From contig CALVZE010000003.1 in the NCBI GenBank assembly GCA_944372445.1, positions 67,816 to 121,503 of the forward strand: a stretch of 53,688 bases of DNA, in the 5' to 3' direction. Source of the stretch: an uncultured Clostridia bacterium. GTDB taxonomy: Bacteria > Bacillota > Clostridia > Christensenellales > UBA1242. How positions within the stretch are numbered: the stretch's first letter is position 1; each line of letters opens with the position of its first letter. Under the pieces are notes generated by a model, which saw only the letters and a list, made by a program, of their open reading frames with translations, did no database searches and was not told the DNA's origin. Of the stretch, positions 40,249 through 53,688 are shown in pieces. The position numbers and the translations under genes were made by a program.

Positions 40249-40980
40249 TCAATAATTTTCAAGAATACTATTCATCTTAATAACATCAGTGCCTGTTATA
40301 ATTCCAAGAGGCTTTTCCTTTGCTCCGCCGTTCTTTGTAACAAGAATAGCAAGAAGTTTAGAATTGTTATGGAAGAATTCCAGCGCTTCTTCCACCGTCA
40401 AGTCTTTGTTTGCAAAAACGTAATAATTGCTATTTTCAATCTTAGAGAGCATATCTTCAATTTTTACGTTATCTAAAAAGACATCCGCCTTTCCACCTGT
40501 AATTAAAAATTTACCTAGCGCATCTAAAATCTTCTGCCCGTTAGCCACGCCTATTATCTCTCCTGAATTATCAAAAACAGGAATGTTTGAATAATTTGAA
40601 GAGGCAATTAAAATGATAGCTTCACGCATGGATTTTCCACTTGAAAGCGTGAGAACATCACGCCTACACACCGTTTCAAGTGCCTTTGGTGGAGCCGTCA
40701 AAAGCCTTTCAATTTTTTCAATCTGCTCCACAACTTCATAGTGTGGTTCTGCCATTATGTAATCTTCATTTCCGTGAACGATGGCATTTCTTAGCCTGCC
40801 AAAATCAATTAAATCGTCCTCATATTTTCTGACGATATAGTTTAGAGCCACGCTACGCCTAATAAGTTCTGAAAAGCCCATGCTTCTGTTTAAGTTATAT
40901 CTTGTTCTAATGGTATAATCTATATTATTATACGATTGCAAAAAACGCTGTGCATTTGATAAATCTTTTTTTTCTTTCAT
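40249..40980 (-). CDS. CBS-domain protein
   Basis: LRNAIVH N-terminal domain; YSNIPVFD and PLGIITGTD CBS pair. Confidence 0.8.
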   Translation of the reverse strand: MKEKKDLSNAQRFLQSYNNIDYTIRTRYNLNRSMGFSELIRRSVALNYIVRKYEDDLIDFGRLRNAIVHGNEDYIMAEPHYEVVEQIEKIERLLTAPPKALETVCRRDVLTLSSGKSMREAIILIASSNYSNIPVFDNSGEIIGVANGQKILDALGKFLITGGKADVFLDNVKIEDMLSKIENSNYYVFANKDLTVEEALEFFHNNSKLLAILVTKNGGAKEKPLGIITGTDVIKMNSILENY

Positions 40981-41155: not shown

Positions 41156-41827
41156 GTGAGAAAACTTTGCTATTTACAGCGTAAATCCAGAAAAAGACGG
41201 AGGATAATAGCAATTTTGCTTTTGTGTCTAATTATCACCTCAATTTTATTGTATGTGTTTTGTATTATAAATCCTGTTGTCAAAGAGGCAACTTGGGCAT
41301 CTATCTATTCACTTTCGACCTCCGCGGTGAGCGATGCTGTTTATGATGTCATAGCCGAACAAAATGTTAAATATGAAGATTTAGTTGAACTTTCTTATGA
41401 TAATAATGGCGACATAACGCTTGTGTCGATAGACACTGTGCTTGTCAACAATCTTGCGCGACGATTTTATCAAGTGGCACAAGTTTATCTTGACCAAATG
41501 GGAAAAAACGGAATTGATATTGCGATTGGCACCTTCACAGGCTTACCTTTTCTTGTGGGAATAGGACCAACAGTCAATATCAAATTTGTGCAAATAGGCG
41601 CCATGACCTCATGTTTCAAAAGCAAGTTTACTAGCGCTGGCGTCAACCAAACAAATCATTCTTTATATATAGAGCTACATGCCAGCGTCAGCTTAGTGCT
41701 TCCAACATATTCTTCAACAGTTGACAGTGTCACTGAATTTCTTGTAACAGAGAGTGTTATTGTTGGAGATGTGCCAGATGTATATTTTGGTTCAGATAAC
41801 ATTGTGACCCTTGCGCCAAGCAGTTGA
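41156..41827 (+). CDS. yunB: Sporulation protein YunB
   Basis: N-terminal TM segment, IAIGTFTG...GP, F.SAGVNQT.H, ESVIVGDVP. Confidence 0.88.
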   Translation: MRKLCYLQRKSRKRRRIIAILLLCLIITSILLYVFCIINPVVKEATWASIYSLSTSAVSDAVYDVIAEQNVKYEDLVELSYDNNGDITLVSIDTVLVNNLARRFYQVAQVYLDQMGKNGIDIAIGTFTGLPFLVGIGPTVNIKFVQIGAMTSCFKSKFTSAGVNQTNHSLYIELHASVSLVLPTYSSTVDSVTEFLVTESVIVGDVPDVYFGSDNIVTLAPSS

Positions 41828-41919: not shown

Positions 41920-41968
41920 AAACAATATATGGTGTAGTATGCATTAAATACTACACCATATATTTACT
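41920..41968. repeat. NrdR-box-like dispersed repeat, copy 4, forming a perfect 17-bp inverted repeat
   Basis: AATATATGGTGTAGTAT-gcattaa-ATACTACACCATATATT between convergent yunB and spoVAE. Confidence 0.7.
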
Positions 41969-42332
41969 TTTTTGTGTGCGAGTGAAAAATCAATGCAAAG
42001 ATGAAAGCGAAGACAATCGCCGCGGCAATCCCTCCTGCCGTTGCGGTAAGTCCACCCGTAAAAATACCTAGTAATCCTTGCGACTTCACTGCTCCGATTG
42101 CCCCTTTGGCAAGTGACGCGCCAAAGCCGATAATAGGAACATTGATGCCAGCCCCTGCAAAGTCGGAAATATACTTAAAAACGCCGACCGCTTCTAAAAA
42201 CACACCGATAAGCACAAATGTGACAAGTATGCGCGCGGAGGTGATGTTGGTTGTGATTATCAATATCTCGCCAATCATGCACACCAATCCGCCTATAATA
42301 AATACCCATAAATAATCAATAAACATCTCCAT
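41964..42332 (-). CDS. spoVAE: Stage V sporulation protein AE (SpoVAC/AEb family)
   Basis: FIIGGLVCMIGEIL, ARILVTFV, FAGAG..VPI.GFG.SLAKG, GIAAAIVF; follows spoVAD; GGGAG RBS before ATG 42332. Confidence 0.9.
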   Translation of the reverse strand: MEMFIDYLWVFIIGGLVCMIGEILIITTNITSARILVTFVLIGVFLEAVGVFKYISDFAGAGINVPIIGFGASLAKGAIGAVKSQGLLGIFTGGLTATAGGIAAAIVFAFIFALIFHSHTKK

Positions 42333-42433
42333 AAATAACTCCCACAATAATAAAACTTAGAACTTCTTTTGTTTCGTTGGAAAAAACAAATTTGGTTTCC
42401 AAAAGCTGATTATATTATATAGCCTCAAACTAA

Positions 42434-42828
42434 CTATTCCTCACACGCTTCAATAACAATAGCATGACAAACACCAGGAATACTTTCTCCTTGTTGTGTA
42501 GAGGTGGTGCTGAGCAATGCACCTGTTGGCATAAAGAGAACTCTTTTATACTGTCCGTCTTGTAATTTTTTCATGATGTAAGAATTAAACACAGTCGCCG
42601 AGCAACCACACCCTGATGCACCGCATAGTGTATTTTGGTCGCGCCTAAAATACATCTGCCCGCAATCACCATAATTCAATCCAAGTTTTACGCCTTTGTC
42701 CTCCATAAGGTCGACAAGTATTTCACTGCCAAGCTTGCCCAAATCGCCCGTTGCAATAAGGTCATAGTCATCTGGTGTTGTTTTAGAATTTTCAAAGTGT
42801 GCAAGCATAGTTTCAGCACAACTAGGTG
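42434..42828 (-). pseudogene. spoVAD: 3' fragment of spoVAD, interrupted by an integrative element
   Basis: YDLIATGDLGKLG, DCG, GASGCGCSA, TGALLS, QGESIPG..HA are SpoVAD C-terminal motifs; similarity starts abruptly at P-S-C-A-E-T (normally ...GAAMAPAA.DT), with AT-rich non-homologous DNA upstream. Confidence 0.92.
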
Positions 42829-42918
42829 GGATTGTCAAGTATGGACCATAAAATTTTTAAAAAAATATAAATTTATAACCAAATTAACATAAAATAGCCA
42901 CTTTTTATTCCAAAATGA

Positions 42919-44571
42919 CTATTTTATGCAGTTTTCGTCTAAATACATATTTATCTTTTCAAACTCATCTTTGAAATTGAATTTTACTTCAATATGCTTG
43001 TTTTCATATATCAAAATTCTCTCGATGAGTTCATTTGCCATCTCTTTTGTAAGAGATGTAAAACCTTTGTATTTAGCAAAAGTGGTTATAAATTTATTAT
43101 TCTCAAATTCGACATTTTTATTTATATTACTACAAATCGCAATCAATTGATTTTCAAGCAAGTTTATCTTTTGCGTGGCAATATCTCTCTGTTTAAGATA
43201 ATCATTCTCAGTTATCTCCCCTGACTTAAACTTTATATACAAGACAGTTAGGCTATCTTTAAGAGATTTGAGTTCGTTATCTAATTTTATATGCTCTTTC
43301 TCAATGTTGCTACTTACATTTGATTTTTTTAAATTTATTATTTGGATTATATGTTGTATGTTAACTGAAATATCAATATATTTTTTTACAATATCAAAAA
43401 CAAGTTTTTCTAATACATCATTTCTAATCGAGTGTTTTGTGCAAACTTTACCTTTTGTCATCATATATGTTGGACATCTATAATAATACTTTCCTAGTAA
43501 ACTTTTTTCATTACAAATGCAAGTTTGAAGCACTTTCCCACAATCACCACATCTTACAAGTCCACCTAATATATATGTTCGAAAAGGTTTAATATATTTT
43601 GTTCTATTATTTTCTAATCTAAATTGCACTTTATCAAAATCTTCTCTTGAAATGATTGCTTCGTGTGTGTTTGGAACTATACACCATTCTTCACTTGATT
43701 TCTTTATGATTTTATGATTTCGATAACTTATTGTTCCTCTTGTCCCTTGCACCATATCTCCAACATACATTCTATTAGATAATATCCTTTGAACAGCTGA
43801 CGCAGTCCAAATATGGTATTTACTTTGATGTGGATTTTTATATTTATATCCTTTTGATTTTTTATATTCAAATGGAGTTAATATTTCATTGTCATTCAAG
43901 AATTTTGCAATCGCGCTTAAACTACTGCCATTTAAGAACATTTTATAAATAATTTTAACAACTTGGCTTGCCTCAACATCTATAACAAGTTTATGCCTAT
44001 CTTCTTTACTTTTTTCATATCCATAACAAGCAAAAGAACCTATAAATAAACCTTGTCTCATATAGGATTTTTGAGCAGTCTTTACTTTGATAGATAAATC
44101 TCTAACATATTCGTCATTCATTATATTTTTAAAAGGCACCAATAGTCCATTTACTGAGTTTGGGTCAAGAAAGGTATCTACATTATCTAATAGAGAAATA
44201 AATCTAACCTTTAAAATAGGAAAGATGACTTCTATATAATTGCTACTTTCTATTGTGTTTCTGCCAAATCGTGACAAATCCTTTACAATAACACAATCAA
44301 TGTCCCCTGTCTTAATCTTGGCAAGCATTCTTTGAAAATCAGGTCTATCAAAATTTGTTCCAGAATATCCTTCATCTATATAAAAATCATCAATTTGAAT
44401 ATCGGGATTTTGTGCGACAAATTTATTTAGCAAGGCTCTTTGCGATGAAATACTATCACTTTCGTTTTTAACTACATCGTCTTCTCTTGAAAGTCTTAAA
44501 TAAAGCCCTGCTTTCCAAATTTTTTCTTCTTGTATTTTTGCAAGATTGTTGTATCTACTAACTCGGCTCAT
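42919..44571 (-). CDS. Large serine recombinase
   Basis: YLRLSRED catalytic Ser, DEGYSGTNFDRP, VKDLSRFGRN, recombinase domain, CGDCG zinc ribbon, coiled coil. Confidence 0.95.
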   Translation of the reverse strand: MSRVSRYNNLAKIQEEKIWKAGLYLRLSREDDVVKNESDSISSQRALLNKFVAQNPDIQIDDFYIDEGYSGTNFDRPDFQRMLAKIKTGDIDCVIVKDLSRFGRNTIESSNYIEVIFPILKVRFISLLDNVDTFLDPNSVNGLLVPFKNIMNDEYVRDLSIKVKTAQKSYMRQGLFIGSFACYGYEKSKEDRHKLVIDVEASQVVKIIYKMFLNGSSLSAIAKFLNDNEILTPFEYKKSKGYKYKNPHQSKYHIWTASAVQRILSNRMYVGDMVQGTRGTISYRNHKIIKKSSEEWCIVPNTHEAIISREDFDKVQFRLENNRTKYIKPFRTYILGGLVRCGDCGKVLQTCICNEKSLLGKYYYRCPTYMMTKGKVCTKHSIRNDVLEKLVFDIVKKYIDISVNIQHIIQIINLKKSNVSSNIEKEHIKLDNELKSLKDSLTVLYIKFKSGEITENDYLKQRDIATQKINLLENQLIAICSNINKNVEFENNKFITTFAKYKGFTSLTKEMANELIERILIYENKHIEVKFNFKDEFEKINMYLDENCIK

Positions 44572-44578
44572 ATCTCAC

Positions 44579-46276
44579 CTACATAGATAAGGCAATTTGT
44601 GCCTGTTGATATTTTTTCTCTTGTATATATACTTGCCTGTTCAGTTCAATATATTGAAGAGCGTTCATATATTCATCTCTAAATTTAACTTCCACTTCAA
44701 TCTTGCCACCCTCGTATATATAAATATTATTAATAAGCTCGACAACAACATCTCTTGTTAGTTCTGTTATGTTTTGATATTTTTTAAAGTTTTCAATAAA
44801 CCTATTTTCAGTCGTTAGTCCATTTTTTATCGCTTCTTTTTGTAATATCAAATTTTCAATAGCACTTAAAATCTCTTCTTTCTTCTGTGAGTATTTGTCT
44901 TTCATAGAAAGATACATATCCTGCGTGATAAATCCTTTTTTCCAATCTGGATACAAATCTTCAAGCAGTCTATTTATATCATCTCTTTCTGCATATTTCG
45001 ATTTTAACATCTTATCAATTTTTGCCGTCTCTTTTGTCCGTTCTTCACTTCTATTTATGAAATCAATAAGGCTATCCATCGTTATTGCAATATTTACATA
45101 CTGCTTTATCACAGCAAAAACCGCTTCCTTGATTTTATCAACTTGAACTGCGTGTTTTGTGCACGCTTTGCGTCCAGATTTTTTAAAAGTGCTACAAATA
45201 TAATAGTAATACTCTTTGTAAGGCTGATGAATATGCTTTTTATTCATACCCCGCCTACAATCTCCACACTTGCAAAAACCTGACAATAAGTCTAATTGTT
45301 TGGTGCTTGTGCAAACTCTTGTATCTCTTGCAAGTAATGATTGCACTTTTTCAAAATCTTCTCTTGAAATAATAGGTTCGTGCGTGTTTGGCACAATTAT
45401 TCGTTTGTCTTTATCAACTTTTCGGCAAATTTTAACTTTATAACTAACTATCTCTGCTTGCTTTTGCACCATATCTCCAACATACATTTGATTTGTTAAG
45501 ATACGTTTTATTCCAAGTGAGTCCCATTTAGGGTTTCCAGTTGTAGAAAAATGTCTATCTTTATATCCTTTACTTCTTTTATATTCACTTGGAGTTAAAT
45601 AATTATTGTCATTCATATAAATTGCTATTGAACGAATTGTGGCGCCTTCTAAAAACATTTTATATATCATTCTTACATTATCAGCAGCCTCTTCATCAAC
45701 AATGAGTTTATGCTTATCATTTGGGTCTTTAATATATCCATAGCAAGCAAATGAACCTATATATTGCCCATTTTCTCTTTTAATCGTAAGAGAACTTCTA
45801 ATCTTCATAGAAATATCACGACAATATTCATCATTGAGCAAGTTTTTAAAAGGAACTATTACATTATTTATAGACTGCGGATTTAAAAAACTATCTATTT
45901 GGTCATTTATAGCAATAAATCTCACTTTCAACATTGGAAAAACGATTTCGATATACTTACTTGTTTCAATATGATTTCTTCCAAGTCTTGATAAGTCTTT
46001 TACAATAACACAATCAACCTTATTCGCTCTTATGTCATTAAACATTCTTTCAAAACTATCACGATTAAAATTTGTGCCAGTATAACCATCGTCTATATAC
46101 TCGTCATAAAGTTTAAGGTCTGGGTTTTTCAACAAAAAATTACGCAACATCTCTCTTTGAGATTTTACGCTCTCACTTTCCATTTTATCACCGTCTTCAC
46201 GAGATAAACGTATATACAAAGCAGTATTCCAAATTTTACCGCTTACTTTATTTTCAAAAACATTTTCCATAAGCAT
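44579..46276 (-). CDS. Large serine recombinase
   Basis: YIRLSRED, DDGYTGTNFNR, VKDLSRLGRN, THEPIIS, CGDC zinc ribbon. Confidence 0.95.
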   Translation of the reverse strand: MLMENVFENKVSGKIWNTALYIRLSREDGDKMESESVKSQREMLRNFLLKNPDLKLYDEYIDDGYTGTNFNRDSFERMFNDIRANKVDCVIVKDLSRLGRNHIETSKYIEIVFPMLKVRFIAINDQIDSFLNPQSINNVIVPFKNLLNDEYCRDISMKIRSSLTIKRENGQYIGSFACYGYIKDPNDKHKLIVDEEAADNVRMIYKMFLEGATIRSIAIYMNDNNYLTPSEYKRSKGYKDRHFSTTGNPKWDSLGIKRILTNQMYVGDMVQKQAEIVSYKVKICRKVDKDKRIIVPNTHEPIISREDFEKVQSLLARDTRVCTSTKQLDLLSGFCKCGDCRRGMNKKHIHQPYKEYYYYICSTFKKSGRKACTKHAVQVDKIKEAVFAVIKQYVNIAITMDSLIDFINRSEERTKETAKIDKMLKSKYAERDDINRLLEDLYPDWKKGFITQDMYLSMKDKYSQKKEEILSAIENLILQKEAIKNGLTTENRFIENFKKYQNITELTRDVVVELINNIYIYEGGKIEVEVKFRDEYMNALQYIELNRQVYIQEKKYQQAQIALSM

Positions 46277-46377
46277 ATCTCCTCATAATAAAATTGAGAT
46301 GATATGCCGTGAATATCTAATACGATATTATTATAACACATCATCTCAAAAATATACAGTGATTTTTAAAATTTATC

Positions 46378-46659
46378 TTAATTTCCTATCTTTGCAAGTA
46401 AAATTTTTTCCATTTTATCTTGAAAACTCTTATTTGTGTCAGCAAATTTTACTTTAACAACCAAATCACCAACCTTAAAAAGATAGGGATTTTTTATCTT
46501 TTCAATAAAGTCAATTAACTTTTCGTGTTTACTTTTTGATGTGTCGATATTTATATCTCTAATATCAACCAAACTATTTGTATTACAAGTTTTAAAATCT
46601 TGATTTTTCATTTCATTTAATTCATTTAATGTTATCATACTCAAATTTTTGACATACAA
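46378..46659 (-). CDS. Small recombinase-associated protein (DUF6870-like)
   Basis: LVDIRDINID...IKNPYLFKVGD.VVKVKF, as recalled for small genes preceding clostridial serine recombinase clusters. Confidence 0.7.
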   Translation of the reverse strand: MYVKNLSMITLNELNEMKNQDFKTCNTNSLVDIRDINIDTSKSKHEKLIDFIEKIKNPYLFKVGDLVVKVKFADTNKSFQDKMEKILLAKIGN

Positions 46660-46719
46660 AATTTTTTTTATTCCAAAAAGAATTATCGAAATAAAAAGAA
46701 TTATGTCAAATCCTCCCCA

Positions 46720-47115
46720 TCATAGTTCACTTGCTTTTAAATTTTCTATATCATCTTTAATCTTTTCAGTTAAATCATAAACAAGACTTTCTAAATCACC
46801 ATCTGTGACGTTGGCAAGATTGTTATAACCATCTAACTTGTAAATATCATCACTGTAAGTATCTGCTACAAAACAGCGAACTCTATCCACTCCATCTTTT
46901 GCAGCAGCTTTAAGCCAATAATCTACATCATCATCGTCTAATATATCCGAAATTTCTCTTATATCATCATAGTAATCTGTGCTATGTTCTGCGTCAAAAT
47001 CCTCTATAAGATTCTTTATGTTCTCAAAAACATCTTTCTTGCATTTAGTATCTATATCTTTTACTTCTTCTTTCAATAAATTTATTAATTTCTTTCTTGC
47101 GTATATTTCATTCAT
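46720..47115 (-). CDS. Acidic hypothetical protein
   Basis: AAGGAG RBS; DGYNNL.N motif; ends SEL. Confidence 0.7.
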   Translation of the reverse strand: MNEIYARKKLINLLKEEVKDIDTKCKKDVFENIKNLIEDFDAEHSTDYYDDIREISDILDDDDVDYWLKAAAKDGVDRVRCFVADTYSDDIYKLDGYNNLANVTDGDLESLVYDLTEKIKDDIENLKASEL

Positions 47116-48208
47116 TATTGTCTCCTTTTAGATAAGGTATCAATCTTTCTGCCACTCTTTTTATCATAAGTGGTGGGACACTCATTCCACACACATAGGC
47201 AATATTATCTAAACTCTCCGACAGAAAGTTAAAATCCTGTGGAAAGGTTGAAATTGACACAATATCTTGTTTAGATAAGAATTTTTTATCGCACCACCTT
47301 ATGTTATTACAATGGGCAGTTATTGTTGGTGCAACCTGATCGTCATAAACAAAGCAGTAATTAAAAAAAGAACTCTTGTTTCTAAGTTTTCTACAAGCGT
47401 TCTCTAAATTGCGATCTCCATATTTGGCATTATCTATAAGTTTTTTAAGATTATCTGTTATTCCTCTTTCGCTTCCATCTTTTGACTTAATTTTACTAAA
47501 TGTAATAGGTCTATAAAGAAAAGACATATTCAGTTTATTCAAATCGACATCTAAGCGTGTCGCAATAAAAAATACTCTATGTCTTTTCTGTGGTATTCCT
47601 ATTTGTTCACCTTTAAGAAGCCAATGTTTTACCTTGTATCCGATATTATGAAAATGTTTATAGATATTTTGAACATATCTCCAAGCATTTCCCTTTGTAA
47701 GTCCTTCGACATTTTCCATAACAACAAACTTTGGTTTAAGCTTTTTAACAGTTTCTATAAACACAAAAGACAAATCGTCTAACGTCTGTTCTTTTTGTCC
47801 TTCTCTAAATTTCTTTTTCTTCCCCCAAGTTTTTTCTCGCAAACCTGCCATTGAAAATGTAGTGCAAGGTGGACTTCCATCAAGTATATCTAACTCAAAC
47901 AATTCCTTTGGTAAATCTTTATTAGGAATTTTATTGAAATCTCGAATATCCATCACAAAGTTTAATTTAGGGTTATGGTTGGCAAGATATATCTCATTCA
48001 TTCGTTTGTCAATTTCAAGGCAACCAACAACATCATATCCTGCCAACTTATATCCCATAGTGGAGCCTCCTCCACAAGCAAATGTGCTAAATACTTTTAA
48101 CCCATTGTTTTTCGGATAATCTTTAAAATGCCAATACCAATCATTACTATCTTTTTCTTTATAACAATCAAAGTCACTACCAAGCATATCAAACATTGAT
48201 TGTTGCAT
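47108..48208 (-). CDS. DNA (cytosine-5) methyltransferase
   Basis: FACGGG, DGSPPC..FS, ENV, Q.R.RVF, FPQDF, GMSVPP. Confidence 0.93.
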   Translation of the reverse strand: MQQSMFDMLGSDFDCYKEKDSNDWYWHFKDYPKNNGLKVFSTFACGGGSTMGYKLAGYDVVGCLEIDKRMNEIYLANHNPKLNFVMDIRDFNKIPNKDLPKELFELDILDGSPPCTTFSMAGLREKTWGKKKKFREGQKEQTLDDLSFVFIETVKKLKPKFVVMENVEGLTKGNAWRYVQNIYKHFHNIGYKVKHWLLKGEQIGIPQKRHRVFFIATRLDVDLNKLNMSFLYRPITFSKIKSKDGSERGITDNLKKLIDNAKYGDRNLENACRKLRNKSSFFNYCFVYDDQVAPTITAHCNNIRWCDKKFLSKQDIVSISTFPQDFNFLSESLDNIAYVCGMSVPPLMIKRVAERLIPYLKGDNNE

Positions 48209-48218
48209 AGTAGTCCCC

Positions 48219-49184
48219 TTAACTCATTTCTTCTTCGTTAACTTTTTTCATCGCCCTTTTCACAATATTTTCTATGCAGGATTTAAAGTTTTCTTCATCT
48301 TTGACGAATGCTTCGTTTACATCTTTATAATCAACACTATTATAAGTAAGATATTTAATTTTGTTTTGTTTGAAAAATTTGATAACATCTTCCGTTGCTT
48401 TTTCGCCAGCTTCATCATTATCAAAAGCAGTGATATAAATTTTTTTCTTGTTTAACTCCAAATTTTTAAACTTAGATAAATTGCTCACACTCCCAAGTGC
48501 TATTGCATTAGCACCAACACTTTCTAAACTCAAACAATCAAACTCACCTTCGGTAATAAAACAAAATGGTTTATCATTATATAATGCTTCTTTGTTAAAA
48601 ATATCAGTATGATGACTTTTTGTTTTATAGTATCTCAACTCATTATTTGATGTATCTATGTTGCGTGCTGTAAACCCATTTTTTGAAATTGGGATTATAA
48701 TTGCTTTGAGAGTCTTATTGCCAAAATTAAACTCATTGTAGCCTAAATTAAATCTTTTTGCTGTTTTTTCATCAATTTTTCTACCTAAAAGATAATTTTT
48801 TGCACTTTTTTCTTTATCTAAATTTTTAGTCCAAATTTTATATGCCCTTGAATAATCTTTCTCTTTTTGATTGTTTTCTTTATTTTTTTCTTTTGTGAAC
48901 TCTTTTATTGTTCTTAAAGTTTGACCCATTTTATAATATTGCAATGCCCTTTTAAAAGCCTCTTTGTTATCAACATTTTCAAGTATTGCAATACAATCAA
49001 ACAAGTTATATGTTTCACCACAACCAAAACAATAAACTTTGTTATCATCATAATATTTCATTGAAGCATTGCTATCATTGTGATTGGGATTTATACATCG
49101 AAACATTCGACTTGTATTTATTCCGTGACTTTCAAGATAATTTCTTAAATTAGATTTGAGATACTCATATTCAATATCTTCCAC
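48219..49184 (-). CDS. DNA primase-like protein (zinc finger + TOPRIM)
   Basis: C.NP.H.D...CFGC; ITEGEFD..S; AFDNDEAG; KDVNE. Confidence 0.88.
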   Translation of the reverse strand: MEDIEYEYLKSNLRNYLESHGINTSRMFRCINPNHNDSNASMKYYDDNKVYCFGCGETYNLFDCIAILENVDNKEAFKRALQYYKMGQTLRTIKEFTKEKNKENNQKEKDYSRAYKIWTKNLDKEKSAKNYLLGRKIDEKTAKRFNLGYNEFNFGNKTLKAIIIPISKNGFTARNIDTSNNELRYYKTKSHHTDIFNKEALYNDKPFCFITEGEFDCLSLESVGANAIALGSVSNLSKFKNLELNKKKIYITAFDNDEAGEKATEDVIKFFKQNKIKYLTYNSVDYKDVNEAFVKDEENFKSCIENIVKRAMKKVNEEEMS

Positions 49185-49190
49185 AATAAT

Positions 49191-49511
49191 TTACATTTCC
49201 TCACTGCTTAATTTCTTGTATCTATCTTGAATATCATAGTAAATAAATTCTCTCAAATCATCTTGCGTCAAGTCATATTCTGTTTTCATAAATCTATAAT
49301 ACAAATCTTCTACAATTTCTTTTTTTGCAAAATCTCTTCTCATATAACTTTTGCCATAGTTTACAAGGAAATTATAAAATTCTTCGTGTGCGTGAATTTG
49401 ATAAAAACTTTCGTATAATTCTTCTGCTGGAAGTTTTTTCATTTGCATTTTATATTTTTCGTGTTCTCTATCAAGTTCTCTCACGAACTCTCTATACTCA
49501 TCTTCTAACAT
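49191..49511 (-). CDS. Hypothetical protein (DUF3848-like)
   Basis: GGAG RBS before ATG 49511; helical acidic protein ending SEEM; family call tentative. Confidence 0.65.
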   Translation of the reverse strand: MLEDEYREFVRELDREHEKYKMQMKKLPAEELYESFYQIHAHEEFYNFLVNYGKSYMRRDFAKKEIVEDLYYRFMKTEYDLTQDDLREFIYYDIQDRYKKLSSEEM

Positions 49512-49512
49512 A

Positions 49513-49884
49513 TTACATCTCCGAGTCATATTTTTTATTTTTAGATTTTCGGCTATTTGCTTTATATTCAGCTATCTCTTTCAAAATTCTTTGTGTGTTT
49601 TTATATTTCTCTTTGTTGTAATATTCTTGCTTTTTGATATATTTATCTAAATCCTTCATATCCTTTTTTTCAAGTTTATACTTAATGCCACAATCACAAG
49701 AGATAAATTGCAATCCGCAAGCGGGACAGCGCTCAATATCGCACATATCTAAATGTTTTTCTCCAACGTGAACACCGCAATCTCCACAAGTTGGGTTTTC
49801 TTCATCTCCTACCCAATCTTCGTCCTCATCACCAAATAGTATTGGATCATAAAGTTTGCCTTTAATCAAGTATTTTACCGACAT
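49513..49884 (-). CDS. Cys-rich zinc-binding hypothetical protein
   Basis: CGDCGV...H..CD.ERCPACG.QFISCDC; ends DSEM. Confidence 0.8.
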   Translation of the reverse strand: MSVKYLIKGKLYDPILFGDEDEDWVGDEENPTCGDCGVHVGEKHLDMCDIERCPACGLQFISCDCGIKYKLEKKDMKDLDKYIKKQEYYNKEKYKNTQRILKEIAEYKANSRKSKNKKYDSEM

Positions 49885-49893
49885 AATTTCCTC

Positions 49894-50667
49894 CTACATT
49901 TCTTCATCACACTGATTATATTCATAAGCATGGGTTTTCTTATTAAAAGAATAATATCTTTTAGAATCAGGCCAAAGTTCAAAACCTTTTTCATAAGCTT
50001 CTTTGCTGCCTTCATCAAAAATGAGTTCTTTTGTGCAATCACCATTTTCAAACTCATATTCACCACAAAGAACACAAATTTGTTCTTCAGCAAATTCATA
50101 TTCAAATAAGTTTTGTGGAAACATAGAAGATAATTTCAGCATAAGTTCTGGAACAGGACTCCAAGCTGTGTCAAATAAAATTACATTATCTTCTATTTCT
50201 GTTTCGTGTGCATTCCACTTGGTCCCCCAATTTCGAATACTCCAATCATACCAATCCACTACACCATAATTTAAAATGTTATCTAGTGCCATTTTGCCAT
50301 AATTCAAAACTGATTGTTCGTTCTCAAATCTTTTCTTTCCTTTCCAATCTTTTTCTTCTGCAATTTCTTTTAATTTCTCTTTAAATTCATCGTCTTTCAT
50401 TCCGATATAATTTTCACCAATTGAAACAATAATCGATATATATTTTTTAAACTCATCTGTCTTTTTTATTGAGTTCATAAAAAGATTTATATATGTTGGA
50501 ACTCGTGAAGAAGATTCCATTTTCGCTATACTTTCTGGCATAGGCGTGATTTTGTTAAAATCCAAAACCACTTTATGTTCTTCGTTGTCAAATGTTGTGA
50601 TTTGATGTAGAACTTCTTTATATTGTGGACCTCGAATTGTTAAACGATTTCTTACCCAATTTGGCAT
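49894..50667 (-). CDS. DUF1281/YubB/Api92-like ferredoxin-fold protein
   Basis: MPNWVRN.L, LDFNKI.PMP, WYDW...NWGTKWNA, FDTAWSP; ends DEEM. Confidence 0.8.
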   Translation of the reverse strand: MPNWVRNRLTIRGPQYKEVLHQITTFDNEEHKVVLDFNKITPMPESIAKMESSSRVPTYINLFMNSIKKTDEFKKYISIIVSIGENYIGMKDDEFKEKLKEIAEEKDWKGKKRFENEQSVLNYGKMALDNILNYGVVDWYDWSIRNWGTKWNAHETEIEDNVILFDTAWSPVPELMLKLSSMFPQNLFEYEFAEEQICVLCGEYEFENGDCTKELIFDEGSKEAYEKGFELWPDSKRYYSFNKKTHAYEYNQCDEEM

Positions 50668-50676
50668 AATTCCCTC

Positions 50677-51198
50677 CTACATTTCTTCTTGTGCTTGTCG
50701 CTTCTTCTCTGCTTGTAATGTTGCTTCTGTCCAAAATCCGTAAAAATCTTTTGGTCGTTTTATCCCTAATTGCTTATATTCTTTATCTAACCCTTTTTGC
50801 ACTTCTTTGAAATCATCAAATGGATATTCAGCATATATCCATTTGTCTTTATCGTTAAATATATAGATATACTCAATCCAACCCCATTTTTTAAGTTCTT
50901 TTAAAGAACAGATACTTGCTTCTTGGTCAGTTTCTCCCCTATCTCTTCCATAAGCAACCACAACATCATCTTGTCTTTGACTATAATCAAATGAATGTGG
51001 TTTACTTGGATCTGGATTAACCTTTTCACATAGACAAGAAATATTTCCAAGATTTAAAAGTTCTTCAATCTTTTTTCTATCTTTATAATGGTCAATAAGC
51101 ATTGCGCCATTATAGGTTAAATAACCATCACTATGACAATAAATTGCTTTATATTTATCGTCACCAATCTTTTCACAAATCAAACTTCTTGTTGACAT
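50677..51198 (-). CDS. Conserved phage/ICE hypothetical protein
   Basis: MSTRS.I...IYCHSDGY....G..L..HY, AYGRDRGE, EYIYIF; ends QEEM. Confidence 0.8.
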   Translation of the reverse strand: MSTRSLICEKIGDDKYKAIYCHSDGYLTYNGAMLIDHYKDRKKIEELLNLGNISCLCEKVNPDPSKPHSFDYSQRQDDVVVAYGRDRGETDQEASICSLKELKKWGWIEYIYIFNDKDKWIYAEYPFDDFKEVQKGLDKEYKQLGIKRPKDFYGFWTEATLQAEKKRQAQEEM

Positions 51199-51207
51199 AA
51201 ATCCCCC

Positions 51208-52104
51208 CTAAATTAAGCTATATTTTCCTGCATATAAATTCCACGGTTCTGTATTTAGATAATAATCTAATAACTCTTGATAAACATAAATTGACTCCAA
51301 GTTAGGACATCTTGAAAATGGTTGATAAGAAGTAGTAAAATTTGCTGACACCTCATTCTTTGATAGGAATGTCACCTGTTTTAAGTTATCACAACCATTA
51401 AATGTGCCAAGAGTCATCTTTTTTAGACTTGATGATAACTCAACTTCTTCAAGATTTTTGCAATTAAAAAAAGCATAAGGGTCTATTTGTTCGACTGTGC
51501 TAGGCAAAATTAGCGACTTTATATTTGTTCCCCAAAATGCACTGTCGCCTATTCTTTTAAGTCCCTCACTAAATTCTATTATTTCTAAATTTGAACAATC
51601 TCTAAAAGCAAACAGTTCTATTGTTTCTATTGTTTTTGGTAAAATGACTTGTTTTATTTTTTTATTGTTTTGAAAAACACTATTTGAAATACTTGTTATT
51701 TTTACATCTCTTCCTTCAATAAAAGTAGGTGTATCTATTGAGTATTCATAAGTCCAAGGATATAATTGATTATATATCATTTCATAAAAATCATAATATC
51801 CATTAGCACCAGTGGTATAATGTTCTTGTAAAAATTGAAAAGCCTCTGCTCTATCATTAAATGTAATAATTCCACTATAATTTTCAGTATCACCAAATGA
51901 ATATGAACTTGGAATTTCTACTATTTCTTTATCACCATTATACTCAACTATTTTGCTTCCATTAAATACAAATCCTTCTACGGATATTAATGGCTCTTGT
52001 TTTTCAAAACTAACTCTTTGGGTAAGTGCAAATATAAAAAGAATTAAAACTCCAATAATTAAAAACAAAACTCCCCAAGATATTGTTGATTTGCTTTTAC
52101 TCAT
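51208..52104 (-). CDS. Membrane-anchored BspA-type leucine-rich repeat protein
   Basis: N-terminal TM segment; repeats LPKTIETIELFAFRDCSNL and LPSTVEQIDPYAFFNCKNL. Confidence 0.88.
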   Translation of the reverse strand: MSKSKSTISWGVLFLIIGVLILFIFALTQRVSFEKQEPLISVEGFVFNGSKIVEYNGDKEIVEIPSSYSFGDTENYSGIITFNDRAEAFQFLQEHYTTGANGYYDFYEMIYNQLYPWTYEYSIDTPTFIEGRDVKITSISNSVFQNNKKIKQVILPKTIETIELFAFRDCSNLEIIEFSEGLKRIGDSAFWGTNIKSLILPSTVEQIDPYAFFNCKNLEEVELSSSLKKMTLGTFNGCDNLKQVTFLSKNEVSANFTTSYQPFSRCPNLESIYVYQELLDYYLNTEPWNLYAGKYSLI

Positions 52105-52697
52105 AAGTAGTTTTCTTCCTGTTTAAGCAATGTGTCAAACAAAAAATCATAACTATGTTCACTTCGTTCCTTCATTTCACCAATCATTTCTTTTAAAGTA
52201 GTAAATTCAAATACACCCATACATTCTATGAGTTCATCATTTTGGTCTGTAATATCAAAAGCATAGTATTGTGGAATACCACGAAGCCATCTATCATATT
52301 CTTCAACTTCTGTTTCAATTAAAGCGCGACAAGTATCATAACTTCCAATATCATCTGCCATATTGTGTTCTCTTAATGTTTCTTTTAAAATATAAGCATA
52401 TCCAACTTGTCCACTATCCCAATGATCGTGAAAATCGTGCACTGACATCGCTAGTCCAGAATGGTCAAGAAGATAAAGTGGCATAATACAAGCCACTTTA
52501 TCTTTATTTTTGTTATACCATTCATTAAACTCGCTTGGAGTTTTGAAATTATGTTTGTCGCCTAGTTGATATCTTCTATGAAAACAAATCATTTTCGACA
52601 TATTTGTATCTTTATAATATTCTCTTGGATCCTCAATATCATCTTCAAAAACTGTTAAAGTCAAACCTTTCCTTTTAATTGACATTCTGTTTTCCAT
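52101..52697 (-). CDS. Conserved phage/ICE hypothetical protein
   Basis: EDPRE, CFHRRYQLGD, PLYLLDHSGL, WDSGQVG, YD.WLRG; GGAG RBS before ATG 52697. Confidence 0.8.
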   Translation of the reverse strand: MENRMSIKRKGLTLTVFEDDIEDPREYYKDTNMSKMICFHRRYQLGDKHNFKTPSEFNEWYNKNKDKVACIMPLYLLDHSGLAMSVHDFHDHWDSGQVGYAYILKETLREHNMADDIGSYDTCRALIETEVEEYDRWLRGIPQYYAFDITDQNDELIECMGVFEFTTLKEMIGEMKERSEHSYDFLFDTLLKQEENYL

Positions 52698-52698
52698 A

Positions 52699-53127
52699 TC
52701 ACATCTCCGAGATAGATTTATTAAGATATTTTTCGCTTTTCTTATACATTTTTGGAACCAATTGAAAGTAATCTCTATATAAATCGGCTTCTTTTGGCAA
52801 TTCAAAGGTCTTTATATATCTTCTACAAATTTTTATTTGGTCGTCAGTTAGACTTATATTATCTCCCGTATCGGAATCATATCCCACCATATAGCAAGTG
52901 CCTTTAACACAATCTCCAGTGCCTGCTATCCAAATATTGCCCGGTTCGTGATTTAACATTGCTTCATCGTTTGCGTAGATATCAATATCATCTGTCCCCG
53001 GCATTTCAATAAGTTCAATATGTCCCCCAACAATCTTTTGAAATGTTTCCAATGTATCATCTATTTCTTCAATAGTTGGCTCTTTCCCGGGTTCTTTAAT
53101 TAACACTCTTATTTTGTCCTTGTTCAT
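52699..53127 (-). CDS. DUF3846-like protein
   Basis: VLIKEPGKEP, LETFQKIVGGHIE, ANDEA, SLTDDQI; ends ISEM. Confidence 0.8.
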   Translation of the reverse strand: MNKDKIRVLIKEPGKEPTIEEIDDTLETFQKIVGGHIELIEMPGTDDIDIYANDEAMLNHEPGNIWIAGTGDCVKGTCYMVGYDSDTGDNISLTDDQIKICRRYIKTFELPKEADLYRDYFQLVPKMYKKSEKYLNKSISEM

Positions 53128-53350
53128 TTGTTTTCCTCCAATTCAGAAAATCTTTGTATTTCATAAGTTCCCAATTACTTGAATAAAAAGCTTGCTGTAT
53201 TGATACAGCTAAAATTGGTCTGATTTCTTTTTTTTCATCATAATTCTTTAAATCATCTCTAATTGCTCTAAGTTTATCAAGCAAATCTTTCTTTGAAGAA
53301 TAGTCTATATCTTGCAAAACAAACGCAAGTTCTCCACCAATATTTAACAT
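53096..53350 (-). CDS. Hypothetical protein
   Basis: GGAG RBS before ATG 53350; fills the gap in a coupled gene array. Confidence 0.6.
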   Translation of the reverse strand: MLNIGGELAFVLQDIDYSSKKDLLDKLRAIRDDLKNYDEKKEIRPILAVSIQQAFYSSNWELMKYKDFLNWRKTNEQGQNKSVN

Positions 53351-53351
53351 A

Positions 53352-53688
53352 TTACTCCACCTCACTTTCGTTTGTCTTTTTCTTGTTCTTTGCAGTTCTT
53401 TTGGGTTTTTCATTTTCTTCAACCTTCACTTCTACCGCGACTTTTTCTTTAACTTCTTCTTTTGTTTCAGTCTTTTCTTTCGCAAGATTTCTTACTGCAT
53501 ATTCGACAGAATTTTCAACATTTGCAATTATTTGCTTTGAAGCTGAGCGTATTTTCTGCAAGTTCGACTTAAACAAATTCAAATCTTCATCAGACCAGTT
53601 TTGAATTTCATCAAAATTAAATTCTGGCAAATCAAGTCCAAGTTTTGAGTTTACGGCATAAATGGTTCCGGCAATTTCAATATCTCGG
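53352..53688 (-). CDS. Hypothetical protein, 5' truncated by the window
   Basis: Frame open from the window edge (RDIEIAGTIYAVNSKLGLDLPEF...); K/E-rich tail ending SEVE. Confidence 0.7.
   Translation of the reverse strand, partial: RDIEIAGTIYAVNSKLGLDLPEFNFDEIQNWSDEDLNLFKSNLQKIRSASKQIIANVENSVEYAVRNLAKEKTETKEEVKEKVAVEVKVEENEKPKRTAKNKKKTNESEVE

Follow-up and report, generated by a model that had tools for sequence, protein, structure and literature searches.

The DNA analyzed here is a stretch of 53,688 nucleotides (the window; positions 67,816 to 121,503 of contig CALVZE010000003.1, GenBank assembly GCA_944372445.1) from an uncultured Clostridia bacterium, and it carries the 3' part of the sporulation gene spoVAD next to a mobile element with two large serine recombinase (LSR) genes, which cuts the spoVAD frame at profile positions ~202-206. 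The source genome (coded G000) comprises 1.12 Mb on 37 contigs and is rated 99.7% complete; the window forms the end of its contig C3. An open reading frame (ORF) of 134 aa on the minus strand (42434..42838) matches positions 202-329 of the 329 positions of the Pfam family SpoVAD (PF07451; E 8.7e-51) and contains no internal stops, as had been stated for the last ~131 codons of spoVAD in an earlier reading of the letters alone (the sequence-only reading). This reading had placed the edge of the spoVAD homology at ~42828 and two LSR genes ~90 bp away from it, and both statements hold: the core hexamer CACCTA ends at this edge, contigs with the uninterrupted gene part from the window right after 42828, and the two LSR genes lie where they had been placed (Table 1). 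The 5' part of spoVAD, which was expected beyond the end of the window, is present and undecayed on contig C2 (ORF C2:80337-80978), where it is preceded by spoVAC. In a profile search of the whole genome it matched with 300.8 bits (C2:80352-81029) and the 3' part with 169.9 bits (C3:110264-110644), the two pieces spanning SpoVAD profile positions 3-229 and 202-329 and with this the full family profile; neither an intact second spoVAD nor any other further copy scored above the threshold. The break falls in the codons of the motif ...NMGAAMAP/S... (the slash marks the break), of which NMGAAMAP is invariant in 12 aligned relatives.

The two ends of the element share the core CACCTA, within which the crossover would take place. 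At the left end (attL) host sequence ...ATGGCACC passes into TAAAATGG..., the last letters of which are GGACCATAA (C2:80970-80978), and at the right end (attR) TTATGGTCC...CCCACC passes into the host sequence TAGTTG.... TTATGGTCC is the inverted repeat of GGACCATAA at the opposite end of the element, and these 9-bp arms are symmetric about the core, as expected of the attP site of an LSR. A serine recombinase together with att sites that have a common core and inverted repeats is the arrangement of a skin-like element. Recombination in silico within the core yields a spoVAD of 335 codons reading ...MAPSCAET..., exactly the frame that had been predicted, and the rejoined protein aligns to the intact SpoVAD of nine congeners without gaps and with 71-75% identity. 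Precise excision restores the full-length frame in silico, and an uninterrupted allele exists in nature (see below). That the element interrupts spoVAD is borne out by the 5' half, the intact rejoined frame, the lack of a second copy, and the conserved att arms; because these arms are conserved in many genomes, the junction is not an assembly chimera.

The end of contig C2 and the reverse complement of the end of C3 overlap by 8 bp, and an ORF of 325 codons crosses this join, the last ORF of the window running on in frame into C2. The joined element measures 55,985 bp, of which the window (42829-53688) holds the right-hand 10.9 kb and contig C2 the remaining 45 kb; all called ORFs but one are co-directional with the spoVA operon, and the GC content is 0.26-0.34 in the element vs. 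~0.36-0.41 in the host flank. Pfam searches identified a MobL relaxase (1.4e-26), a VirD4-type coupling protein (T4SS-DNA_transf 1.1e-50; TraG-D_C), a type IV secretion system (T4SS) pilin, and a VirB4-like ATPase (TraG P-loop/DUF87). With relaxase, coupling protein, VirB4-type ATPase, and integrase inside the bounds of attL and attR, the element has the gene content of a ~56-kb integrative conjugative element (ICE), as which we classify it. A prophage was considered and rejected, as the 39 scanned ORFs of element and flanks contain no capsid, terminase, or tail families in Pfam and conjugation genes are present instead. The primase, which the sequence-only reading had judged to fit an element that persists as a circle or reintegrates, is ordinary equipment of a conjugative element. 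Further genes of the ICE encode a LexA-like repressor and a sigma-70 region-4 protein. A defence-like block (C2:93085-107275) comprises DUF6339, an SNF2 helicase, an N6/N4 methylase, a ResIII helicase with C-terminal RE_endonuc, a small FtsK-gamma protein, and a DEAD helicase with DUF559. Two BspA-type leucine-rich-repeat (LRR) proteins, likely surface proteins, are encoded at C2:81645-86366 and within the window; one of them has 1573 aa with Listeria-Bacteroides repeats.

Table 1. Features of the window around the split spoVAD gene (window coordinates unless a contig is named).
Feature	Position	Strand	Basis or remark
yunB-like sporulation gene (host flank)	41156..41827	+	Pfam Spore_YunB 9.4e-26
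spoVAE/EB, last gene of the spoVAC-AD-AE operon (host flank)	41964..42347	-	Pfam SpoVAC_SpoVAEB 1.3e-29
spoVAD 3' part with stop codon	42434..42828	-	residues ~205-335 of the rejoined protein
Common core CACCTA of attL and attR	42823..42828 (attR); C2:80950-80955 (attL)	-	direct reading
attR element-side arm, ending in TTATGGTCC (42843-42851)	42829..42851	-	direct reading
LSR1, 550 aa, beside attR	42919..44571	-	Pfam Resolvase, Recombinase, Zn_ribbon_recom, DUF4368
LSR2, 565 aa	44579..46276	-	Pfam Resolvase, Recombinase, Zn_ribbon_recom, DUF4368
DUF6870 protein, 93 aa	46378..46659	-	Pfam DUF6870 1.8e-28
Acidic protein, 131 aa	46720..47115	-	no Pfam match
C-5 cytosine DNA methyltransferase	47108..48208	-	Pfam DNA_methylase 2.1e-46
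DnaG-like primase (CHC2 zinc finger and Toprim)	48219..49184	-	Pfam Toprim_2 5.3e-15, Zn_ribbon_DnaG 6.8e-06
Remaining element genes to the contig end	49191..53688	-	Pfam: weak DUF3848, DUF1281_C/Api92-like, DUF3846, unknowns
BspA-type LRR protein	51208-52104	-	Pfam

The host retains Spo0A, SpoIVA, YunB, and SpoVAC/AE, its Gpr-like match is partial, and no alpha/beta-type small acid-soluble spore protein (PF00269) was found in this genome, rated 99.7% complete. Full Spo0A is encoded at C1:12398-12706 (248-aa frame), and four short ORFs of 132-159 aa (C1:3893-4192, C1:83128-83436, C16:1617-1922, and C32:7202-7504) match the C-terminal DNA-binding domain of Spo0A only (E 7.6e-25 to 5.8e-15). A host protein of 243 aa (40249-40980, minus strand) has two CBS domains and a weak N-terminal match to the RiboL-PSP HEPN family (E 0.008) below the cut-off.

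The interruption recurs at the same site in other Clostridia, which was followed in sampled genomes (G codes) and in LSR loci (L codes) that an LSR alignment retrieved from species-representative genomes. Among 331 spoVAD-bearing genomes sampled from the order, nine are clear cases of a split at about profile position 200-206 (G000, G031, G275, G411, G351, G396, G242, G273, and G379), G083 and G310 are likely further ones, and G015 and G035 were added from the sample of relatives. The split genomes span five coded families (seven including G083 and G310) and have no further spoVAD copies. The count leaves out the low-scoring G160 and G415, and eleven genomes with breaks at contig ends or at other positions were not counted as same-site splits (G068, G062, G122, G217, G232, G042, G200, G314, G017, G018, and G022). 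A comparison with empty alleles, as the sequence-only reading had proposed, showed one full-length spoVAD in 19 of 24 further genomes of the genus, next to the uninterrupted allele within the species itself; among the five others, G017, G018, and G022 are cut by contig ends and G015 contains the same-site 3' half only, with an attR nearly identical to that of G000. In G010, spoVAD is full length on the profile with one gap in the alignment. In family f36, 16 genomes gave two spoVAD matches each, and these were rejected as splits: the three checked (G146:C2:175187-176359, G060:C1:31792-33015, and G301:C41:807-1976) hold a single longer ORF of 399-427 aa with an in-frame insertion at ~174-176, and the remaining 13 were assumed to be alike.

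Of the 80 nearest LSR loci, 26 have a 3' half of spoVAD, which lies 25 to ~6,500 nt downstream of the LSR and starts at residue 204-206 in 25 of these 26 and at residue 177 in L055; the identical loci L064 and L065 count as one. Both halves are found at six of the 80 loci, 3.4-9.8 kb apart, the 5' half only at two, and an intact gene at one. The element-side arms are conserved, with TATGGTnn...TTGACA...CCCC at attR (in 26 other loci) and ...TATAATAnnACCATAA at attL, and the same junction architecture occurs on single contigs in G031, G275, L032, L034, L035, L036, L039, and L045. Elements at this site range from 3.4 kb (the LSR with one or two genes) to 56 kb, the smallest consisting of no more than the LSR with a small ORF upstream of it and one further gene; those of G031 and G275 are ~21 kb with largely unrelated cargo. 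The metagenome-assembled genomes (MAGs) that carry them are labeled Christensenella, Christensenellaceae, Borkfalkiaceae, Oscillospiraceae, Acutalibacteraceae, Intestinimonas, Oscillibacter, Faecousia, and Lachnospiraceae. A cultured type strain, Agathobaculum butyriciproducens DSM 100391, also has a split spoVAD with the halves on two contigs, and its LSR frame and DUF6870-like gene are open. The element of the window belongs to a widespread, previously undescribed set of spoVAD-intervening elements. In the searchable literature, which does not extend to the supplementary target-gene tables of Durrant et al. 2022, Abe, and Serrano, no description of a spoVAD-intervening element was found, in agreement with the sequence-only reading.

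A number of side observations belong to these loci. One clade of small elements has a conserved cargo of a 219-aa protein, paralogues of GlmM and GlmS, and a 609-aa membrane protein (the GlmM/GlmS-type cargo at L032:3600-9389, L035:3649-9438, L034:2170-7963, and L039:4377-9586), which suggests synthesis of amino sugars or polysaccharides. The idea that the GlmS of the element is the sole copy was ruled out; a second GlmS (41-47% identity) occurs in four of four genomes, and the GlmS cargo is therefore accessory. In L100 (L100:1688-3945), the LSR frame is preceded by a DUF6870-like ORF, stops after ~400 residues without coiled-coil and DUF4368, and lies directly upstream of an apparently intact spoVAD; the locus is perhaps a remnant, or two forms were collapsed in the assembly. 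When 401 genomes of the class were searched with a degenerate attR pattern, five one-mismatch matches resulted, all of them away from spoVAD and from LSRs, which we regard as chance matches; since the pattern also missed G000 and G031, this search is uninformative on frequency.

Two loci allow the age of such an insertion to be judged. L032 and L035 share common flanks and an 8.3-kb element in perfect synteny, and the synonymous divergence (dS) is 0.72-1.1 in the host flanks, 0.77-0.96 in the cargo genes, and 1.0 in the LSR. As the dS of the element matches that of the flanks, the element is older than the split of the two species. The ratio of nonsynonymous to synonymous divergence (dN/dS) for this pair is 0.040 and 0.012 for the 5' and 3' halves of spoVAD, 0.099 for the LSR, and 0.136 for the DUF6870 gene, and the att arms, counted from printed alignments, are identical at 44 of 45 and 26 of 27 bases vs. 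152 of 248 in a control spacer. Across the 15 pairs among six split species, dN/dS lies at 0.01-0.19 for both halves, compared with 0.01-0.14 in intact congeners. The dN/dS comparison of both halves suggested by the sequence-only reading hence gives low values in six split species; it applies to relatives, not to the ICE of the window. In these relatives both halves are under purifying selection, as are the LSR and the att arms of the L032/L035 element, and a gene that is simply dead would not behave in this way. The stretch that separates attL from the first cargo gene (L032:3343-3599 vs. L035:3396-3648) is 86% identical (224/261), other spacers ~61%, and it may hold a conserved leader or a regulatory RNA.

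Both recombinases of the window show the Pfam domains of LSRs, and the serine of the YxRLSxxD motif (S25 of LSR2) is invariant in 16 sequences. The DUF4368 LSRs of clostridial mobile elements of the TnpX/TndX kind have the same domain set. A quick maximum-likelihood tree of 81 LSRs places the spoVAD-linked proteins in several deep, long-branched clades, and the label of spoVAD linkage changes 13 times vs. 23.9 times in shuffles, none of 500 shuffles reaching so low a value. No link to spoVAD is seen in a derived, very short-branched clade of 38 LSRs; it contains near-identical and identical proteins in different genera, as is the case in broad-host-range transposons. The identical pairs are L056 (Sporomusa ovata) and L059 (Caproicibacter fermentans), L086/L087, and L092/L093, and they indicate that these elements have spread horizontally very recently. 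L025 and L026 also have tandem LSRs, the first of which groups with LSR2 and the second with LSR1. LSR2 is the sister of the clades associated with spoVAD, and identity to the LSR of the G031 spoVAD element, which has one such gene, is 50% for LSR2 and 42% for LSR1, which makes LSR2 the probable integrase of the spoVAD site. The spoVAD LSR lineage is strictly site-specific for one codon of one gene, unlike the mostly multi-targeting LSRs with DUF4368, a domain for which Durrant et al. report a share of 63% in a "multi-targeting" clade and 0.73% among site-specific LSRs (PMC10083194).

A protein of the DUF6870 family or a homologue is encoded just upstream of the LSR (100-450 nt) in about 45 of the 80 loci, often with sigma-A-like promoters between the two genes; such promoters are common at the spoVAD-linked loci. 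The fold of the DUF6870 protein was predicted with pLDDT 85, and no PDB entry matched it at E<=0.001. No mention of DUF6870 was found in the literature. A modeled complex with residues 180-565 of LSR2 reached an ipSAE of 0.72, the best of three controls 0.18, and the mark applied to this score was reached by 58 of 80 solved complexes and two of 110 mismatched pairs. At least 86% of the contacts are common to the runs, the pLDDT of the partner is at least 71, and the contacts lie at LSR2 377-406, just past the zinc ribbon, and at 493-550 in the DUF4368 region. The DUF6870 protein is thus predicted to bind LSR2 and to clamp its C-terminal DUF4368 region, and it is a candidate for a recombination directionality factor (RDF) or another LSR partner.

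Contigs, not reads, from 20 public runs of 12 studies that hold the stretch, mostly chicken gut metagenomes, were used to follow the insertion within the species. In run X5, a contig of 1029 nt (depth 32.8, 7 differences) matches the host side as far as 42828 and continues for 112 nt that encode ...DVNNMGAAM, the 5' part of spoVAD and hence an uninterrupted allele; most bins of the element are without cover in this run. In run X1, a host-side contig of depth 14.6 ends exactly at 42828 and a second contig of depth 6.16 begins 30 nt before this position and runs into the element, the signature of a branch, and interrupted and uninterrupted forms probably coexist there. Because a contig of the same species has the uninterrupted gene, the insertion is polymorphic within the species. 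An attP junction, which the sequence-only reading had proposed to look for in metagenomes, was not seen on the contigs of the four runs that were compared with the element; stretches without cover were left out of the reading. Several loose contig ends at 42849/42850 were treated as belonging to unrelated organisms since they differ between runs and sit in an AT-rich stretch.

The explanation that we favor, with a probability of roughly 0.55, is that spoVAD harbors a recurrent element and that its hosts regain the SpoVAD they need through RDF-controlled excision at sporulation. An LSR has inserted the ICE at the conserved ...NMGAAMAP/S... codons, and recombination of attL with attR would release the element as a circle and rebuild the 335-codon spoVAD inside the spoVAC-AD-AE operon. 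The hosts would still need SpoVAD, and a directionality factor would control excision when the gene is needed, i.e., during sporulation. Because spoVA is a sigma-G (forespore) operon, this demands either that the germline copy re-integrates after germination, attP x attB being a reaction that an LSR alone catalyzes, or, alternatively, that excision is a reversible switch at the level of the population. For the ICE of the window, the same excision reaction would also serve conjugative transfer. The comK prophage of Listeria offers a possible working model: in this active lysogeny, reversible excision restores the host gene when needed, and the element re-integrates and is not lost. It differs in being a prophage with a tyrosine-type system in a non-sporulating context. 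As a capacity, restoration by excision is well supported, and at the family level it is supported as a necessity.

Several points weigh against developmental excision. Excision itself was not directly observed under any condition, and the X5 allele and the X1 branch fit strain polymorphism as well as excision. The evidence for co-divergence comes from small cargo elements of another family, not from this ICE, which with its full transfer machinery needs no developmental role. Excision in the forespore would threaten retention in the germline, and re-integration is conjecture. In genus g8, three of nine spoVAD-bearing species are split, so that gains and losses are frequent. DUF6870 proteins also stand beside LSRs that have no link to spoVAD and need not, therefore, be sporulation-specific. 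Among 25 spoVAD-linked loci, a scan with strict consensus sequences, which may not be those of the hosts, gave a sigma-G-like promoter at one and promoters for sigma F, E, or K at none.

The strongest competing explanation is that the insertion is a plain knockout, which we consider possible but clearly less probable than developmental excision. The ICE would use the conserved spoVAD motif as a reliable landing site in many hosts and excise at low frequency for transfer only, and the cost of dipicolinate-poor spores or poor sporulation would be tolerated in the gut. The polymorphic insertion speaks for a knockout, as the intact halves in this species may only reflect recent insertion, and so do the complete set of conjugation genes, the lack of sporulation promoters in the strict-consensus scan, and the turnover within one genus; furthermore, a spoVA mutant of C. 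perfringens still sporulates with reduced viability (PMC3789822). A knockout does not, however, account for the L032/L035 element, which is as old as the species split (dS ~0.8) and yet leaves both halves at dN/dS 0.01-0.04 without a stop, nor for the six split species with values of <=0.19, where a dead gene would decay, nor for elements of 3.4-10 kb without transfer genes that keep LSR and att arms under constraint.

A more far-reaching form of developmental excision, which we hold to be doubtful, treats spoVAD as a programmed, reversible split gene of the germline: excision would occur in the forespore or just before septation, the non-replicating circle would be carried through dormancy, when no cell division dilutes it, and LSR alone would reinsert it at outgrowth. 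If true, it would give bacteria their first known case of a developmental DNA rearrangement that acts on the heritable chromosome and not on the discarded copy of the mother cell, and DUF6870 would be a new RDF family acting via the DUF4368 domain.

It is still less likely that SpoVAD works as a split protein without excision, with an N-terminal fragment (206 residues and 6-8 encoded by the element) assembling with a C-terminal fragment; translation of the latter would begin at an in-frame TTG conserved in the attR arm, on a transcript that reads through from the LSR gene, and purifying selection on both halves would then require no rearrangement of DNA. Such a TTG, within TTGACA, precedes the 3' half at most loci, and the element genes of the six two-half loci and of G031 are co-directional with the operon (except for one each in L036, L039, L034, and G031), as are nearly all in G000; dN/dS does not tell a split protein from excision. 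The break, however, lies inside the most conserved motif NMGAAMAP and not at a linker, the TTG belongs to the recombinase-binding arm and has no clear ribosome-binding site, read-through over elements of 21-56 kb is unlikely, and the constraint on the LSR and on both att arms would be left unexplained. An artefact of assembly or binning, with halves from different strains or a chimeric junction, is very improbable: the halves do lie on different contigs of a MAG, their join rests on 8 bp, and X1, the run with a contig crossing attR, may be the source sample, but the ORF is in frame across the join, matching inverted arms surround one core, eight other genomes or loci show the same junction on single contigs, and the congener G015 has nearly the same attR.

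The described intervening elements interrupt sigK, spsM, spoVFB, spoVR, gerE, and yabG (PMC4191935, PMC5025042, PMC5595907, PMC10747680). A close counterpart is skin in sigK (SpoIVCA in B. subtilis; CD1231 and the RDF CD1234 in C. difficile), where a sporulation gene is likewise divided by an LSR element whose att sites carry inverted arms, and precise excision restores the frame. In C. difficile, a constitutive LSR and a compartment-specific RDF of 72 aa result in developmental excision, an arrangement matched by the sigma-A-like promoters and the separate DUF6870 gene of the spoVAD elements (PMC5025042). The gin element in gerE of B. cereus ATCC 10987 (GirC and GirX) is also of non-phage type with a small accessory factor, has three serine recombinase genes compared with two here, and differs in its size of 28.6 kb and in that the accessible description reports no conjugation genes; its rearrangement was demonstrated experimentally, whereas the spoVAD case is read from sequence (PMC5595907). 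SPbeta in spsM, vfbin in spoVFB, vrin in spoVR, and yin in yabG are likewise mobile or formerly mobile elements excised by LSR and RDF (PMC4191935, PMC10747680), and the accessible parts of their descriptions contain no mention of spoVA. The spoVAD element of the window is conjugative, unlike skin. Another difference concerns the compartment: sigK, gerE, and the host genes of the SPbeta, vfbin, vrin, and yin elements are described as mother-cell genes (PMC4191935, PMC5595907), and the excision of SPbeta and skin in the mother cell only leaves the element in the spore (PMC4191935, PMC5025042, PMC5595907). In C. difficile, in contrast, spoVAC-AD-AE is part of the sigma-G regulon and SpoVA is a product of the forespore (PMC3789822), as the sequence-only reading had stated for spoVA, and excision from spoVAD would touch the germline.

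Owing to their location in the mother cell, the described elements survive, since only a doomed chromosome is rearranged. The spoVAD element would be the first to interrupt a gene with its function inside the future spore, and a recurrent, site-specific, and partly vertically inherited element in this forespore gene breaks the mother-cell rule. Possible answers to this are reversible excision in the germline, a switch of dipicolinate content and heat resistance at the population level, or a functional split protein. The lineage offers site-specific LSRs within the DUF4368 clade together with a candidate cognate partner protein. As the elements are common in gut Clostridia (9 of 331 genomes in one order and MAGs of Oscillospiraceae, Acutalibacteraceae, and Lachnospiraceae), they may affect the spore-mediated transmission of commensals.

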